Part shown: positions 1 through 6,445 of the stretch, piece after piece | How the letters are laid out: each line of letters begins with the position of its first letter | Position numbering within the stretch: position 1 is the first letter of the stretch | Source of the DNA: a virus | Lineage: Duplodnaviria > Heunggongvirae > Uroviricota > Caudoviricetes | Strand: one strand, 5' to 3' | Length of the DNA stretch: 18,601 nucleotides | Virus record (IMG/VR): IMGVR_UViG_2711768044_000003 | Made by a program: the position numbers and the translations under genes | The notes under the pieces: model-generated | Database searches by the model: none | What the model saw: the letters and a program-made list of their open reading frames with translations, nothing else | What the model was told of the DNA's origin: nothing

Positions 1-1314
1 CTAACTTACTGATTTTAATAAGCCTCTTGTGTCACCTTGGTGACCATGGGACATCATTGGGACATAATCTGCCAGCTTCTGATTCAGCATTGCGATCTGT
101 TCTGCATTGCTGTCAGTCATCCATGCTCCGTATACATTGAACACCATCTGGGCACTTGCATGACCCATCTGGCTGGCAATGAAGCTTGGATTTGCTCCGG
201 CAGATAATGACCAGCACGCATAAGTGTGTCGTGACTGGTATGCCTTTCGGTGCCTGATGCCCGCACGCTTAATGGCTGTTTCCCATGAGTCGCCAATGGA
301 ATCTACTTTGTAGATAAAACCGACCTGTTTGCTTTTTCTAACCACCTGGGGGTTAAATACGAAAGTACATTCATGATTCACTGAACGTCCATATTCGCGT
401 AGTTGCACTTTGATGTGGTGCTGCTTACCCAGTCTTGTCATTTCAGCCTGATTTTTCAGGACACTGATAGCGGGCTGGATAAGATGCACAACCCTGTTTG
501 TACTTGCCTCAGTTTTAGGTAGAGTGAACTCGCCGAGTTTCGTATAATTGCGTCTGATAGTAATTGTTCCTGCTTTCAGATCGATATCTTCCCAGGCCAG
601 GGAGACCAGTTCACCGTGACGCATTCCTGTGTACACTGCTAATGACCACAGGTTTTTCGTCTGCTGATGCCGACAGGCGTCTATCAGGCGAATAAATTCG
701 TCACGAGTTAGCGGATCTGGTTCTGCCCTGGCTTTTTTAAGAGGCTTAATTCCCTCGAAGGGATTTGCCTCTAAGTAACCGTGATCTGCAGCAAACTGAA
801 ACATTCCAGCGATTGTCGTCATGTAATAATTTACAGTAACGACACTCCGTCCTCTTGCTGGTGCTTTGTCTTTCGTTGAATTCTGATATCCGGTCAGTAA
901 ATCTTTCCTGATATACAGCAATTCCTCTTTGGTCACCGTCGACACCAGTCTGCTACCTCCAATTTTCGGGACCATCGTTCTTGCAACGGATTCATAACGA
1001 TTGAATGCATTTGCAGAGATTTCCATTCGTTTCAGATCCAGCCACTTTTCTTCAAGTTCTTTCACCGTAATTTCTTTTTTACTTACCCCAAAAGCCTGAA
1101 GGTTAGGGGAGTCAGGGAACTGTGCAGCATAATCAAAGCTTCCTGTGCGGATGGCAAAACATACCGATGTCCGCAGTTCCCCAGCGATCTTCCTGTTCCT
1201 GGCCGTGTCAGGGACACCAAGATTTTCCCTGACACGTTTACCTTTAAAATTAAACCAGATGCGCAATGTGCCACCGTGGTTTTCGACGCCTGTTGGATAT
1301 TTGACTTTATCCAT
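1..1314 (-). CDS. int: Phage integrase, tyrosine recombinase family
   Basis: 437-aa ORF with ATG at 1314 preceded by GGAGG, stop at 1-3. C-terminal half has the catalytic residue pattern of tyrosine recombinases (R...H..R...Y: RHGELVSL, HRKAYQSRHTYACW, VYGAWM). Sits next to an xis-like gene at the prophage end. Confidence 0.88.
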   Translation of the reverse strand: MDKVKYPTGVENHGGTLRIWFNFKGKRVRENLGVPDTARNRKIAGELRTSVCFAIRTGSFDYAAQFPDSPNLQAFGVSKKEITVKELEEKWLDLKRMEISANAFNRYESVARTMVPKIGGSRLVSTVTKEELLYIRKDLLTGYQNSTKDKAPARGRSVVTVNYYMTTIAGMFQFAADHGYLEANPFEGIKPLKKARAEPDPLTRDEFIRLIDACRHQQTKNLWSLAVYTGMRHGELVSLAWEDIDLKAGTITIRRNYTKLGEFTLPKTEASTNRVVHLIQPAISVLKNQAEMTRLGKQHHIKVQLREYGRSVNHECTFVFNPQVVRKSKQVGFIYKVDSIGDSWETAIKRAGIRHRKAYQSRHTYACWSLSAGANPSFIASQMGHASAQMVFNVYGAWMTDSNAEQIAMLNQKLADYVPMMSHGHQGDTRGLLKSVS

Positions 1315-1369: not shown

Positions 1370-1606
1370 TCACCTAGGTTGTTTGTTTTTCATTGAAGAG
1401 ACCCAGGCATCTATTGCTTTTCTGTTATACATACATTCGCTGGAAGGCTTTGGATTACCGTCTGGTGATACGTGAATATACTCTTTTCCAACCATCCAGC
1501 ATTCTTTCCGGGCCCGGAGAATTGTGCCAGGTTTGAGCCCGGTAATCGCGATAAGAACGCTTTCACAAACCCATTCATTGGGAGCCAGTTGAATCACATT
1601 GCCCAT
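1370..1606 (-). CDS. xis: Excisionase-like small DNA-binding protein
   Basis: 78-aa ORF directly upstream of int on the same strand. The pattern W..E....I...G.KPGTILR...E.W..GKEYIHV resembles lambda Xis-family proteins. ATG at 1606. Confidence 0.6.
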   Translation of the reverse strand: MGNVIQLAPNEWVCESVLIAITGLKPGTILRARKECWMVGKEYIHVSPDGNPKPSSECMYNRKAIDAWVSSMKNKQPR

Positions 1607-3005: not shown

Positions 3006-3226
3006 CGTGTCGCCTCTCGTTGAATTGTCTTGTAGGCTCGCAACATATCGCGAGATTTTCCGGACAAAACCGTCTTCATGAAGAACATTCCACTGCGGTT
3101 TGCAACTATGCCTGGAGTGCAGAGCAACGTGGCGTCTACCACACGGTTATGTTTACGGAACTCAAATACTGTACTGGTGATAACGATGTTCGCTACGGTG
3201 CCATAGTCCTGATATTCGATTTTCAT
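3002..3226 (-). CDS. Hypothetical protein (74 aa)
   Basis: ATG at 3226 forms an ATGA overlap with the stop of the clamp-like gene. Confidence 0.5.
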   Translation of the reverse strand: MKIEYQDYGTVANIVITSTVFEFRKHNRVVDATLLCTPGIVANRSGMFFMKTVLSGKSRDMLRAYKTIQREATR

Positions 3227-3789
3227 GCCAGATGCTCCTCAATAATTTTGAAAGCATCATCACGGCATGGCATCACGACGAACTCAGGATTACCGTATGC
3301 AGTGTTGATCACTGGATCGAACTGAATGCGAACCGCTCCAGCCTCACCGGAAGGTCGTAACTGGATGGGAATAAACTTCCGCTCGCGACCAAACATCTTT
3401 TCCGGATAGCTGAGGTATTCAGTCTGGATAACCGGATTGATACTGAAATCCACTTTTTTCGGGATGATGCGTTCCATATCAGGAAAACGACCATCAACAA
3501 GTTTGATGCCAGTGATCGAGATTCGACGCTCGAACGTGTCGCGGTGAATGGCAAAGGCTTCTTTGTTGAATACCAGTTCAGTGGTTTCCGCTTTCGCCGG
3601 AACCGGTCCTTCAAACTGGACGATGATGTTTTTCTTCGTCCGGATGCCGTGCTCCATGCGCAGTGCTACATGCCCGTTAGTTGACTCGATATATTTCGGA
3701 GTGATGTGCACACCATTCAGGTAGTAACGGACATCATTTTTTGCAGCGCATACCAGAGCTGCGCGAATGAGTTTTGACTGGATGATCAT
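3223..3789 (-). CDS. Truncated DNA polymerase III beta sliding-clamp (DnaN) homologue
   Basis: 188-aa ORF. Three segments match recalled E. coli DnaN in order: NDVRYYLNGVHI...NGHVALRM vs DnaN HQDVRYYLNGMLFETEG...TDGHRLAV; KLVDGRFPDMERIIPKK vs KLVDGRFPDYRRVLPK; FVVMPCR vs YVVMPMRL at the C-terminus. Covers roughly the C-terminal two-thirds of the clamp with deletions. Confidence 0.7.
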   Translation of the reverse strand: MIIQSKLIRAALVCAAKNDVRYYLNGVHITPKYIESTNGHVALRMEHGIRTKKNIIVQFEGPVPAKAETTELVFNKEAFAIHRDTFERRISITGIKLVDGRFPDMERIIPKKVDFSINPVIQTEYLSYPEKMFGRERKFIPIQLRPSGEAGAVRIQFDPVINTAYGNPEFVVMPCRDDAFKIIEEHLA

Positions 3790-4535
3790 GCTTTATTCTC
3801 CCATCCGATTACCTGGAAAAGCCCCATCTTCGGGTGATACCAGCGTGTGCCGCGCGGTTTAGCTTCTGACATCATCTGGCGGAATGCGGCCATAAACGGC
3901 TCCAGTTCTACGATAGCCCTGCGTGACAAAAGCCCGTCCGTAGTCATAAATTCGTGTGTGTCGGTAGGGATGTGGTAGGCGTTGACCAGGTTCCGACACT
4001 TGGCGTCACTCATTCCGCTTTTTGCTACCACCTGGCGGTAACCGACATATCCGGCGCGCATGGTCCCGCGTTTGATGTTCTCCACAGCTTCGGTGACCGT
4101 TTCGATCTTCTTTTCAACATGATTCAGGCGCTTCTGCTGGCGAACGGCATCGGCGGCCATTGCGGCGATCATCTCGATTTCAGTAAGAGGTGCGCGAGTG
4201 CGGAAGTAGCTGTTAACCAGCTCGCGCTGAACCTGCCAGGCCAGATCGTCGGTGAAGGATTTCACCAACATCAAATAACCGGATTCGACCAGTACAATTC
4301 CTGCTGCTGCAAATTTTGAGAAAGTACCGTCAGGGAGGTGTCGACGAATTTCGTCGGAACCTAATTCGAAGTAGTCTTCCCCTTCAATAAGACGAGATTT
4401 GTTTTCGCGGAAATTGCGTCCCGCTGTTCCGTCTGGGCGTTGGTGCACTTCATCAATCATCGCCAGCGTCACAACACGCTGACCGCGATATTCGACTGCC
4501 GGAAGCTGTTTGTTATTGATGGTTACTGTATTCAT
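3786..4535 (-). CDS. Phage antirepressor/regulatory-like protein (tentative)
   Basis: 249-aa ORF, ATG at 4535 preceded by GGAG. N-terminal segment (AVEYRGQRVVTLAMIDEVHQRPDG...EGEDYFEL) resembles N-terminal DNA-binding domains of phage antirepressor families (ORF6N/KilA-N type). Domain assignment is from memory only. Confidence 0.5.
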   Translation of the reverse strand: MNTVTINNKQLPAVEYRGQRVVTLAMIDEVHQRPDGTAGRNFRENKSRLIEGEDYFELGSDEIRRHLPDGTFSKFAAAGIVLVESGYLMLVKSFTDDLAWQVQRELVNSYFRTRAPLTEIEMIAAMAADAVRQQKRLNHVEKKIETVTEAVENIKRGTMRAGYVGYRQVVAKSGMSDAKCRNLVNAYHIPTDTHEFMTTDGLLSRRAIVELEPFMAAFRQMMSEAKPRGTRWYHPKMGLFQVIGWENKA

Positions 4536-4577
4536 TTTTATCTCCAGACAGCCCGGTTGTAATACCGGGCATATGTA

Positions 4578-5405
4578 TTACTTAACCTGAATAAATGGTG
4601 TGTTGGCACCGCTGGTCATGTATTGCGGCAGTGTACCGTTCCACTTGTTGATGGCTTCCAGCTCCATAACGTTTGGGTTCTGGCGCAGTGCTTCGCCGCG
4701 TAAACGAATGGCGTCGGATTCGGCCTGGGCTTTTGTGCGAATCGCATCAGCCTGTCCGGCAGCTTCCGCGCGCAACATATTGGCCTCTGCCTCGCGTTGC
4801 TTGACTTCCTGCTCGCGTTGCAGGGTTTTCTGGTTTGCCGTGACTTTGGCGTTAATGCTGTCAATAACGGTTGGCGGGTATTCCGGCTTACCTACATAAG
4901 AGAGACTCATCACCTGAATACCCACAGGCCCCATCTCTGCCTGAATTTCTTTCAGGGAGTTTTCCAGTAACTCGCCCTTGCCACCATCGATGAATTTGTC
5001 AGTACTCATTTGGCTGGCGAGACGATTGAGGGCGTCAGCAATTTTCTGGCGCAGGTCAGTGTCGGTAATGTCATCCACGCCTTTGCGGTAGGTCTGAAAA
5101 ACCGTGGTTACTTTGGTCGGGTCTACTTTGTAGGCCACGCCGATGTGATAGCCGATGGTTGTACCGTCACTCATCTGGAAGCTGAATGGCTCATCGTAGG
5201 TCTTCATTTGTTTGAAGGTCGGGAAGATGTAAACCTCAGTGTTCCATCCCGTCCAGTAGCGCCCAACACCGACCACCTCTCCGACGCCTTTATCGTCGCC
5301 CAGTTTGTTTACTTTGATGCCCACATTACCAGGCTCAACGCGATCGCAACCGACAAGTCCGGTGGTCAGCAGAACAAGGGCTAAAGCAGGAATAATTTTT
5401 TTCAT
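4578..5405 (-). CDS. SPFH (band-7/prohibitin-like) lipoprotein, predicted inner-membrane anchored
   Basis: 275-aa ORF. Signal peptide with lipobox LVGC followed by Asp at +2 (CDRV). Central region and an Ala/Glu/Arg-rich coiled-coil tail (REQEVKQREAEANMLRAEAAGQADAIRTKAQAESDAIRLRGEALRQNP..LEL..I) are typical of SPFH/HflKC/prohibitin family proteins. ATG at 5405 overlaps the upstream stop (ATGA). Confidence 0.8.
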   Translation of the reverse strand: MKKIIPALALVLLTTGLVGCDRVEPGNVGIKVNKLGDDKGVGEVVGVGRYWTGWNTEVYIFPTFKQMKTYDEPFSFQMSDGTTIGYHIGVAYKVDPTKVTTVFQTYRKGVDDITDTDLRQKIADALNRLASQMSTDKFIDGGKGELLENSLKEIQAEMGPVGIQVMSLSYVGKPEYPPTVIDSINAKVTANQKTLQREQEVKQREAEANMLRAEAAGQADAIRTKAQAESDAIRLRGEALRQNPNVMELEAINKWNGTLPQYMTSGANTPFIQVK

Positions 5406-5590
5406 CTTTTATCCTTAGAAAAAGAAAGACCCTTATAAATGGCATAAATGCAGGGCGGGGTCAGACACGCCAGAGCAAAGCCAGAAATCACTGCTACCGT
5501 ATCCTTCATTGATATGAGGGTCGGAACGATTAATCCGTAAATACATGCGATAATTACCAGTGATATAACTATTCTGAAATAAATGTTCAT
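5402..5590 (-). CDS. Small two-helix membrane protein coupled to the SPFH lipoprotein
   Basis: 62-aa ORF, ATG at 5590 preceded by AGGAGG. Two hydrophobic stretches (IVISLVIIACIYGLIVPTLI and VAVISGFALACLTPPCIYAIY). Stop overlaps the SPFH start. Confidence 0.7.
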   Translation of the reverse strand: MNIYFRIVISLVIIACIYGLIVPTLISMKDTVAVISGFALACLTPPCIYAIYKGLSFSKDKR

Positions 5591-5650
5591 GGTCCTCCTG
5601 ATGTATTAGGCTTGCCTTATTTAATTGCGTCATGGTTAATTTCGTTTACG

Positions 5651-6043
5651 TCAGAATGGTTTTGTTGCCATCAGTTTGTAATATCCGGCGCTCCATGTGT
5701 CATATTTTCTGAACCATTTTTCTGTATACTGTTTCCTGGCGATGAGTCTGCGTAGTCGTCTGATTGTTCGCTGGTGTGCGCGGGTATACTCTGTGGTTGA
5801 TTCTCCCCGTTTCCATGTCTCGTTCCCGTTGAATATAAAACGCATGTCAGGATAGCGCTGTCGGAAACCTGAACGTTCAAAAGCGCGGGTGGTCATAAAG
5901 AATGCTAGGTAACGAATTGCTGTTTTTCGGGTGAGGCATTTTTTTGTTCTCCCGTGGCGTGTTACAAAAAATAACGGACCGACGGGTGTATCATGTTTCT
6001 GTAGTGCCTGGTCAATGGCGCTTGTGATGCGGTTGTCGATCAT
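5651..6043 (-). CDS. Hypothetical basic protein (130 aa)
   Basis: ATG at 6043 preceded by GGGAG. Lys/Arg-rich, no recognisable motif. Confidence 0.5.
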   Translation of the reverse strand: MIDNRITSAIDQALQKHDTPVGPLFFVTRHGRTKKCLTRKTAIRYLAFFMTTRAFERSGFRQRYPDMRFIFNGNETWKRGESTTEYTRAHQRTIRRLRRLIARKQYTEKWFRKYDTWSAGYYKLMATKPF

Positions 6044-6258
6044 TTCTTTATTTCTCCCGAATAACGTTCATGACTCATTACTTCCCAGTTCCGGCCGTCG
6101 TCTTTCGATAACAACCGCCAGCGACGGTTAACCTTCAGACTGAGATATCCGGTGCGCTGTATCCGATGCGGAAATATCCGTTGGCATCTGTACCGCCTCA
6201 GGACCAGCAACGCCTGCTGGTGGACCCACTCAGGAATGCGTGTTGCTGTTAATGTCAC
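6040..6258 (-). CDS. Hypothetical protein (72 aa)
   Basis: GTG start at 6258 preceded by AGGAGG at 5-nt spacing; stop overlaps the next start as ATGA. Confidence 0.5.
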   Translation of the reverse strand: MTLTATRIPEWVHQQALLVLRRYRCQRIFPHRIQRTGYLSLKVNRRWRLLSKDDGRNWEVMSHERYSGEIKK

Positions 6259-6445
6259 CGGTTTCCTCCTGAGCAGGTGCTGTTATCTGATATCCCGCTC
6301 TTTCTGACAGCCGTATGAAAGTATCCATGCTGGCAATCAGCTCGTTATCGCGGACCTTGCAGACACCTGTTACCTGGCCATTTTCAATTGTCATAACGAT
6401 CTGCACTTTTTCGTGCACAACAGATACAGGGGATAAATTAGCCAT
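6230..6445 (-). CDS. Hypothetical protein (71 aa)
   Basis: ATG at 6445 preceded by GGAGG; overlaps the upstream stop by 1 nt (TGATG). Confidence 0.5.
   Translation of the reverse strand: MANLSPVSVVHEKVQIVMTIENGQVTGVCKVRDNELIASMDTFIRLSERAGYQITAPAQEETGDINSNTHS

Follow-up and report, generated by a model that had tools for sequence, protein, structure and literature searches.

The 18,601-nucleotide (nt) stretch of viral DNA analyzed here (IMG/VR record IMGVR_UViG_2711768044_000003, Caudoviricetes; hereafter the window) is a lambdoid, phiP27-like prophage that carries, midway along its leftward early block, two overlapping genes for a 62-amino-acid (aa) two-helix membrane protein and a 275-aa SPFH lipoprotein. 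An earlier note on the sequence had singled out this pair as a membrane module of the early-left arm; the location and the coordinates it gave are borne out by the open reading frame (ORF) list (5590..5402 and 5405..4578), with the correction that both genes lie on the minus strand. The genes are joined by the ATGA overlap that the note had described, made up of the stop codon of the small gene (TGA, 5404..5402) and the start codon of the SPFH gene (ATG, 5405..5403). The strong AGGAGG ascribed to the small gene is also present, but its spacing of only 3 nt (ACC) from the ATG is rather short. The SPFH gene has its own AAGGA ribosome-binding site within the end of the small gene, 6 nt before its ATG (Table 1). 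An overlapping 66-aa ORF at 5433..5633 is an alternative-frame artefact.

Hydropathy resolves the two hydrophobic segments that the note had assigned to the small protein, separated by a polar turn of four residues (MKDT) and followed by a basic C-terminal tail; by the positive-inside rule, both ends are predicted to be cytoplasmic, with only about four residues exposed to the periplasm. Patterns of substitution indicate that this ORF is a genuine gene and not a chance ORF: across 33 distinct 62-codon versions, the variable sites number 21, 13 and 44 at the first, second and third codon positions, and the ratio of nonsynonymous to synonymous divergence (dN/dS) against the window copy is 0.10-0.46 in relatives with appreciable synonymous divergence, four near-identical pairs being uninformative. 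The protein matches PHROG 1130 ('membrane protein', 1.1e-24) and has no Pfam family at E<=1. We rejected an NfeD/OB-fold partner because the protein has no such match and is too short for an OB fold, which agrees with the note's description of a minimal partner lacking that fold.

The 275-aa protein begins with MKKIIPALALVLLTTGLVG-C20-D21, a canonical lipoprotein signal that has Asp at +2, as the note had read it, and that comprises an n-region MKK, an h-region IIPALALVLLTTG and a lipobox LVGC20 that fits the consensus [LVI][ASTVI][GAS]C. The lipobox Cys is nearly invariant among close relatives: of 120 close cluster representatives, at least 98 have Cys-Asp (the motif scored 93, and a further 5 that it failed to score plainly retain the two residues) and 5 have Cys-Glu. 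In E. coli, Asp at +2 is the Lol-avoidance residue, that is, a signal for inner-membrane retention, and from this rule we infer that the protein, once lipidated, is kept in the inner membrane. Beyond the signal, Pfam Band_7 (PF01145) matches residues 22-208 with E=9e-31 (107.7 bits against a cut-off of 23.6), so that the SPFH domain holds up in a profile search, and the protein matches PHROG 200 ('lipoprotein') at 4.8e-112. In an AlphaFold2 (AF2) monomer model with a predicted local distance difference test score (pLDDT) of 75, the SPFH body is followed by one 65-residue helix and then by a poorly predicted C-terminus. The helix corresponds to the coiled-coil tail of the note and, on the model, may form the coiled-coil 'wall' segment found in cage-forming SPFH proteins. 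The C-terminus carries a conserved motif in which W255, G257, P260, P270 and F271 are invariant, the W and G also being invariant in the fused homologues described below. This motif is probably an inter-subunit 'cap' segment, and the pLDDT below 50 of residues 246-275 in the monomer model would fit a ring or cage assembly.

Foldseek comparison of the model with the PDB returned full-length alignments, each with a probability of 1.00 over about 260-300 columns, to the cage-forming SPFH proteins HflC (7vhq_G, 2.7e-14), prohibitin-2 (PHB2; 8rrh_B, 3.5e-14), erlin (2.4e-13), HflK (2.7e-13), stomatin (1e-11) and flotillin (4e-9); QmcA matched at 8e-8. In sequence comparison, prohibitin-2 and HflK/C alone among proteins of solved structure appear as relatives, at E of about 1e-3, and the prohibitin-2 match covers residues 198-254 (E=0.0015). 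NCBIfam gives sub-threshold scores for the HflK/HflC equivalogs (TIGR01933, 22.2 bits vs 159.4; TIGR01932, 21.8 vs 134.4), and distant homologues bear database names such as 'prohibitin family protein' and 'regulator of protease activity HflC'. Taken together, these structure, sequence, profile and annotation matches place the SPFH protein nearest to the HflK/C-prohibitin-erlin group. Members of this group lie on a non-cytoplasmic face and partner with membrane proteases or ligases. We rejected a direct HflK/HflC orthologue, as the equivalog cut-offs are missed widely, there is one SPFH gene and not two, and the anchor differs. The 'serine protease' label found in phiP27 and Stx phage records was likewise rejected, as neither Pfam nor NCBIfam identifies a protease family and the weak PHROG 'protease' match (0.0012) is confined to the coiled coil. 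The note had predicted that the SPFH domain faces the periplasm and had treated this as odd; the prediction follows from the signal peptide and is independently supported by the fused homologues, in which a basic linker, taken to be cytoplasmic, comes before the signal helix, but the orientation is not unusual, because HflK/C share it.

Conservation, mobility and natural fusion of the pair

The two genes form a real module that travels as one mobile unit across very different phages. PHROG 200 and PHROG 1130 are both matched by adjacent genes, an adjacency conserved among relatives. In a close set of 96 related loci drawn from phage records, E. coli genomes, IMG/VR and GTDB genomes, a two-helix ORF lies directly upstream of the SPFH gene in 91, mostly with the same 4-nt overlap, and the five exceptions can be explained. 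Two of them, Shigella flexneri SFBU1023 and E. coli ECMA0423 (loci L086 and L087, ~4650-5000), have no small ORF upstream of an intact SPFH ORF, and the DNA immediately before that ORF terminates with what we take to be an IS1 terminal repeat. The others are a contig end, a Candidatus Symbiopectobacterium locus with decayed copies of both genes, and the P1-like phage RCS47, where the partner is present with a 20-nt overlap that fell outside the scan window.

The linkage persists at much greater distance. When a hidden Markov model (HMM) of the partner was run against all plus-strand ORF segments (n=3706) of 72 loci whose SPFH proteins are 33-55% identical to that of the window, the match was immediately adjacent to the SPFH gene in 64 loci, nearby in 2 and absent in 6, with exactly one match per locus wherever there was one. 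Conservation of the pair, which the note had proposed as a check, is therefore strong in both sets. In the rV5-like phage 4MG (L097 2275-2439), and also in KpS8, Mydo and GAP31, a gene for a 54-aa soluble protein lies between the partner and SPFH genes; some records call this protein a 'transcriptional regulator'. Searched with tblastn against 50,697 phage records, the small protein was found in 52, and every cross-checked record has an SPFH gene close by.

Evidence for mobility comes from phiP27, whose DNA matches the window from 4565 to 5594, an interval that takes in the two genes alone, with different genes on either side; a match so confined implies that the pair moves as a cassette. The downstream cassette edge is a GC-rich hairpin at 4551-4570, which coincides with the end of the DNA common to phiP27 (4565). 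No T-run accompanies this hairpin on the coding or transcribed strand, and it makes no convincing terminator. On a contig labeled 'MAG: archaeon' (L096, JANQNF010000027.1), a terminator-like hairpin is followed by a partner gene and the beginning of an SPFH lipoprotein gene whose product is 65% identical across residues 2-81; this is likely bacterial or phage DNA that was mis-binned.

Natural fusions also indicate that the two proteins work together. When 1.84 billion cluster representatives were searched exhaustively, 212 clusters matched at E<=1e-30; among the best 150, about 20 proved to be in-frame fusions with 55-105 extra N-terminal residues (P0152, P0157, P0158 and ~17 more; an example locus is L170 2643-3641). 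Their architecture consists, in order, of a two-helix domain, a basic linker, a hydrophobic segment ending in the lipobox Cys, and the SPFH body. The small protein is homologous to the N-terminal membrane domain of these fused forms: the two align essentially without gaps through a conserved core, they share the motif Y..G...P.[LM][IV]S[AMS].[DS][ST]..[VL]..G, and an HMM built from free-standing proteins alone recovers ten fused N-termini with E from 9e-11 to 1e-3 (calculated for a notional database of one million sequences). The P0152 fusion was recovered on three contigs, which derive from two or more sequencing runs, and its surroundings resemble a phage early region; its AF2 model (pLDDT 83) has helices at 2-27, 32-55 and 57-72 followed by the SPFH body. 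One candidate with the small domain at the C-terminus, P0161, lacks the normal C-terminal motif and probably reflects a frameshift joining an SPFH gene to a downstream small gene; it was not used.

These fusions imply that the two proteins act together, probably at 1:1. They also bear on topology: the third helix can export the part after it only if the linker is cytoplasmic, which places the C-terminus of the hairpin in the cytoplasm and the SPFH body outside. The lipobox Cys, which follows the third hydrophobic helix, is invariant in 19 of 19 aligned fused forms, so internal processing by signal peptidase II is possible and the fused homologues may be polytopic precursors that are cut into the same two products. 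The fusions further suggest that what matters is tethering to the inner membrane, which in the split enterobacterial forms is secured by the Asp at +2.

Carriers, expression and genomic setting

The family extends well beyond prophages. With the SPFH protein as query, tblastn retrieved 402 phage records, temperate and many virulent. The virulent carriers include N4-like phages (Erwinia S6, Klebsiella MY01, Pylas), rV5-like Vequintavirinae (4MG, GAP31, KpS8, Mydo), Felix O1-like phages (phiEa104, Salmonella ST-3), LUZ24-like Pseudomonas phages (DL54), phiCbK-like Caulobacter phages, jumbo phages, a crAss-like phage and Lak megaphages. Other carriers are lambdoid phiP27 and Stx2a/2d converting phages, HK97-like Fraca, P2-like P88, P1-like RCS47 and replicons of phage-plasmid size, about 108 kilobases (kb) long (Cyrano, and Kluyvera and Yersinia contigs). 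DNA matches are present in 722 of 5426 complete E. coli genomes (~13%). Scans for relatives gave two loci each on the viral contigs with P0155 and P0187, and 11 loci in the genome scan. One IMG/VR contig (L006) encodes an SPFH protein 100% identical to that of the window. Annotated occurrences (phiP27, Stx2 phages, P88, RCS47, Fraca, S6, 4MG, phi1026b, BcepF1 and phiCbK-like phages) carry labels that range from 'putative serine protease' to 'band 7 lipoprotein' and 'HflC/HflK family inner membrane lipoprotein'. A full-text literature search found no functional study of the PHROG 200/1130 pair, only papers that note the domain, and a 2026 paper states that the reason for the presence of an SPFH gene in a phage genome 'remains unclear' (PMC13239085).

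In virulent phages the SPFH gene sits among early, replication or nucleotide-metabolism genes and not in lysis cassettes; in P88 the pair lies between cox and a replication gene in the early operon; and in RCS47 (L004 3967-4990) it occupies the slot that tciABC holds in reference P1 (L169 12234-12930), within the C1-controlled ban operon. The P1 tciA-tciB-tciC genes are annotated as tellurite or colicin resistance, and the slot looks like an exchangeable accessory site. In the window, a scan revealed no promoter-like site directly upstream of the pair and no convincing promoter of its own. This lack, together with the embedding of the pair in early lytic operons that are repressor-controlled where documented (P1 ban), suggests that the pair is probably silent in lysogens, and the abundance of the family in virulent phages and early lytic operons makes a lysogen-only function unlikely as the general one. 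As a general role, lysogen-protecting abortive infection or constitutive prophage exclusion thus appears unlikely from sequence context. The earlier note's suggestion of abortive infection is weakened accordingly, also because PADLOC-DB v2 contains no family that either protein matches at E<=1; exclusion may instead operate during lytic growth.

A variant of the abortive-infection idea is a toxin-antitoxin-like pair, in which a holin-like, depolarizing hairpin is restrained by the SPFH scaffold and freed on infection by another phage. The small protein does have the look of a class II holin or pinholin, as judged from hydropathy and charge, with two helices, N-in and C-in ends and a charged C-terminal tail. 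A holin as such was rejected, given the early-left operon with its unrelated early genes, the single Met start without a dual-start motif, and the natural fusions. A toxin acting on its own is also unlikely in view of the fusions to the SPFH protein; in addition, many virulent phages carry the pair, it lies in no lysis cassette, no defense family is matched, and SFBU1023 and ECMA0423 lost the small ORF and kept the SPFH gene, the opposite of what is expected for a dispensable antidote. We give this explanation hardly any weight.

Prophage carriage raises the prospect of lysogenic conversion, in which the lysogen would produce a lipoprotein that travels to the outer membrane or into vesicles and acts on the animal host as a TLR2 agonist, altering capsule or adhesion. 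The pair is indeed found in Stx-converting phages and in the E. coli genomes counted above, and a parallel, the sole experimental account of a prophage SPFH protein that the literature search yielded, has been reported in Pasteurella multocida, where the prophage protein PM0222, a 25-35 kDa 'HflK/C-like' SPFH protein whose membership of the present family is unconfirmed, is made in the lysogen, occurs in outer-membrane vesicles, signals through TLR1/2 and, when deleted, attenuates virulence (PMC9872710). In Enterobacterales, however, the conserved Asp at +2 would be expected to hold the protein in the inner membrane, the family has many members in virulent phages, which form no lysogens, and TLR2 activation is generic to bacterial lipoproteins; we therefore consider conversion very improbable.

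Superinfection exclusion had also been raised by the note. Here, an inner-membrane and periplasmic complex, expressed from the prophage or early in lytic growth, would keep the genome of a second phage out, either by capturing an entry factor in the inner membrane or by hindering access at the periplasmic face, in the manner of T4 Imm/Sp or HK97 gp15. Known exclusion systems block DNA entry at the periplasmic side of the inner membrane, and the pair behaves as a patchy accessory cassette in the early regions of many unrelated phages; its early position in virulent phages fits the precedent of T4 imm/sp, and the category assigned to PHROG 1130 is 'moron, auxiliary metabolic gene and host takeover'. 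Set against this, neither protein resembles known exclusion or defense proteins, the PADLOC search being empty and the small protein, with no Pfam match, having none to the T4 Imm family either, and the pair is probably silent in lysogens. We also rejected a link to the annotated 'superinfection exclusion protein' near the SPFH gene of phage Vi01, which is soluble and acidic, lies two genes from the SPFH gene and is not its partner. Exclusion is in our judgment unlikely, albeit with enough in its favor to be taken seriously.

The breadth of carriers is also compatible with a membrane stabilizer that acts in lysis timing or counter-defense, a scaffold keeping the inner membrane energized in the latent period and guarding against premature holin triggering, damage from adsorbing phages or depolarizing abortive-infection effectors (cf. 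rII vs Rex). SPFH, flotillin and PspA-type scaffolds are tied to membrane integrity, the spread over temperate and virulent phages, including jumbo phages, fits a general need of infected cells, and the slot in the P1-like phage is that of tciABC, whose annotation is related to envelope stress. This support is purely circumstantial, however; the pair is in no lysis cassette, and no homologue or assay ties the PHROG 200/1130 family to membrane repair, so that we rate a stabilizing role as unlikely too, and slightly less probable than exclusion.

In the E. coli relative nearest to the window (92% DNA identity), the integrase gene adjoins the DUF72 gene that comes after yecN. The pair is flanked downstream by an ORF6N anti-repressor-like gene (3786-4535) and upstream by a PHROG 1886 gene with a ParE-like pair. 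The latter comprises a 72-aa protein with a ParE-like toxin domain (6040-6258, minus strand; PF24732, E=6.8e-18), encoded in the early-left region just upstream of the SPFH module, and a 71-aa ORF (6230-6445, minus strand; PHROG 340) upstream of and overlapping it, making a candidate toxin-antitoxin pair. Farther along the block, a 188-aa early-left protein (3223-3789, minus strand) gives a weak match to PF02767, the central domain of the beta clamp of DNA polymerase III (E=0.0019), and matches PHROG 947, 'processivity factor', at 6.5e-8; PHROG 3007, in turn, gives the protein a RusA-like label. Downstream of the Q antiterminator and DNA methylase genes, a 142-aa protein (17280-17708, plus strand) contains a TolA C-terminal domain (PF06519, E=1.8e-23), and this phage-borne TolA domain III could be a decoy for colicins or filamentous-phage g3p.

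Table 1 Coordinates of the pair, its sequence features and other elements of the window
Feature	Coordinates	Strand	Basis or remark
62-aa two-helix membrane protein gene	5402..5590	-	ORF list, hydropathy, PHROG 1130, purifying selection, homology to fused SPFH N-termini
Shine-Dalgarno AGGAGG of small gene	5594..5599	-	read from sequence
Predicted transmembrane helix 1, residues ~7-27	5510..5572	-	hydropathy
Predicted periplasmic turn MKDT	5498..5509	-	hydropathy
Predicted transmembrane helix 2, residues ~32-52	5435..5497	-	hydropathy
Basic C-terminal tail KGLSFSKDKR	5405..5434	-	
275-aa SPFH lipoprotein gene	4578..5405	-	stop codon 4578..4580; ORF list, Pfam, PHROG 200, AF2, Foldseek
ATGA overlap of the two genes	5402..5405	-	sequence
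AAGGA ribosome-binding site of SPFH gene	5412..5416	-	within small-gene end
Lipoprotein signal peptide, residues 1-19, with Cys20 (5346..5348) and Asp21 (5343..5345)	5343..5405	-	
SPFH/Band 7 domain, residues 22-208	4782..5342	-	Pfam envelope, AF2 secondary structure
Long C-terminal helix, residues 178-242 (65 residues)	4680..4874	-	AF2; rich in Ala/Glu/Arg/Gln
Conserved C-terminal motif KWNGxLP...G..PF[IV]x[VI]K, residues 254-275	4581..4646	-	
GC-rich hairpin GCCCGG-N8-CCGGGC	4551..4570	not assigned	between SPFH stop and ORF6N gene; scan
Integrase	1..1314		
Small ORF	1370..1606		at the excisionase position of the E. coli relative
Long leftward block of small genes			before the S24/HTH repressor in the window layout
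S24/HTH repressor	7949..8695		
Rightward replication genes			helicase, primase
Q antiterminator	13277-14107		
DNA methylase	15749-16807		

A proposed SPFH scaffold and its relatives

The domains, sorting signals and fold class of the two proteins, the conservation and mobility of the pair, and the homology of the small protein to fused N-termini are established here, and they lead us to a reading of the pair that we hold tentatively, with a likelihood just short of even: as one mobile phage module, the two genes would assemble an SPFH scaffold of the HflK/C or prohibitin type on the periplasmic side of the inner membrane, and during lytic growth this scaffold would surround or regulate some component of the host's inner membrane. 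The 275-aa protein would be exported through its lipoprotein signal and lipidated at Cys20, and the Asp at +2 would then hold it in the inner membrane. Oligomerization through the long C-terminal helix and the conserved C-terminal motif would produce a ring or cage like those of its structural relatives. The 62-aa hairpin, with its N-in and C-in ends and four-residue periplasmic turn, would serve as a stoichiometric membrane-spanning subunit that supplies the bilayer-spanning 'fence', which HflK/C make from their own N-terminal helices. The periplasmic turn, the most conserved part of the hairpin, would adjoin the invariant lipidated N-terminus C-D-R-V-E-P-G. The module would be expressed along with the early lytic genes and would enclose or regulate its target during phage growth; the leading candidate, by analogy, would be an FtsH-type protease.

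Several observations weigh against this scaffold. The lipid anchor is not indispensable, as a widespread lineage on ~109-kb contigs (P0110) has Tyr in place of the lipobox Cys (MGIIGY-DRVEPG; rarer variants have Trp or Phe), so that this version cannot be lipidated, and yet its SPFH gene is still preceded, at a distance of 3 nt, by an intact gene for a 66-aa partner; the loci examined (L173-L175) are on contigs of ~51-110 kb from two NCBI assemblies and one ENA metagenome contig. Other distant SPFH relatives start with a plain N-terminal helix and have no Cys, which together with the Tyr lineage makes the type of anchor interchangeable. Arg at +3 is a caveat on inner-membrane retention based on Asp at +2. 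No partner is detectable in Felix O1-like phages, in phiCbK-like Karma or at loci L161/L162. The promoter scan, which found no sigma-70-like site on the coding strand between 5590 and 7848, is a weak negative, and PM0222 is reported to be expressed in the lysogen and found in vesicles, its place in the family being unconfirmed (PMC9872710). The missed equivalog cut-offs and the lack of a K/C pair mean that the link to FtsH rests on analogy. More broadly, lipidation, inner-membrane retention, oligomerization, contact between the two proteins, expression timing and target are all steps that we infer. Exclusion in lytic growth and membrane protection are serious rivals to the scaffold and computationally inseparable from it.

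A more specific form of the scaffold proposal would make the pair a phage-wide HflK/C mimic, a lipid-anchored SPFH cage with its own two-helix fence that traps host FtsH or another inner-membrane machine from its periplasmic side and so gives the phage control over membrane proteolysis. FtsH is the historical tie of HflK/C to the lambda lysis-lysogeny decision, and the early-left region of lambda carries cIII, whose product is an FtsH inhibitor; because lambda places cIII there, the analogy is attractive for a lambdoid early-left gene. Among the early genes of the window phage, no CII- or CIII-like genes were recognized. We regard the mimic as improbable in so specific a form; if true, it would be a structural counterpart of lambda CIII that serves both temperate and virulent phages.

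SPFH cages (HflK/C, prohibitin, flotillin, erlin and stomatin) have been seen in atomic detail only recently, and their contents are debated. The phage version is compact and mobile, and is distinguished by its lipid anchor, its dedicated 62-aa membrane subunit and its natural fused forms. That PHROG 200 and 1130 are a large annotated phage family pair was known; what is new is the tight, ancient coupling of the two genes, the HflK/C-prohibitin-type fold, the natural fusions that fix topology and stoichiometry, and the spread into virulent phages, which shifts the functional hypothesis away from lysogen defense. Should the pair cage a host membrane machine or block DNA entry, it would represent a general phage strategy at the inner membrane and offer a minimal two-protein system for studying SPFH client choice. 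Even as a generic membrane stabilizer, it would still correct the widespread 'serine protease' label, which domain searches do not support.

Among known systems, the FtsH modulators HflK/HflC of E. coli (cages 7vhp, 7vhq, 7wi3 and 9cz2) are alike in their periplasmic-side SPFH body, long coiled-coil helix and C-terminal cap segment. They differ in being a paralogous K/C pair with N-terminal helices, whereas the phage module has one SPFH gene, a lipid anchor and a separate two-helix subunit. The prohibitin-1/2 and erlin-1/2 cages include the closest PDB sequence, prohibitin-2, and rank near the top by fold; in contrast to the phage protein, they are eukaryotic or organellar, hetero-oligomeric and helix-anchored, and have no lipobox or small partner gene.

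The SPFH-NfeD operons (QmcA-YbbJ, 8z5g; YqiK-YqiJ) share the two-gene layout, with a membrane partner encoded beside the SPFH protein. Here, however, the partner has no NfeD/OB domain and is just a 62-aa hairpin, the SPFH body is predicted to be periplasmic where theirs is cytoplasmic, and QmcA is a weaker structural match. T4 Imm/Sp, HK97 gp15 and P22 SieA are a possible functional parallel, being small accessory phage proteins of the inner membrane or periplasm, but they have no sequence or profile similarity to the pair and none has an SPFH domain.

A similar layout is found in Vi01-like phages (Kuttervirus), in which the lipobox SPFH protein Vi01_108c is encoded directly downstream of a 69-aa two-helix protein, Vi01_109c, with a 1-nt overlap (L176 4022-5022). 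The Vi01 SPFH protein is only 24% identical to that of the window (E=0.002), while Vi01_109c goes undetected by the partner HMM (E=0.12) and has a long basic loop that gives it the opposite predicted topology.

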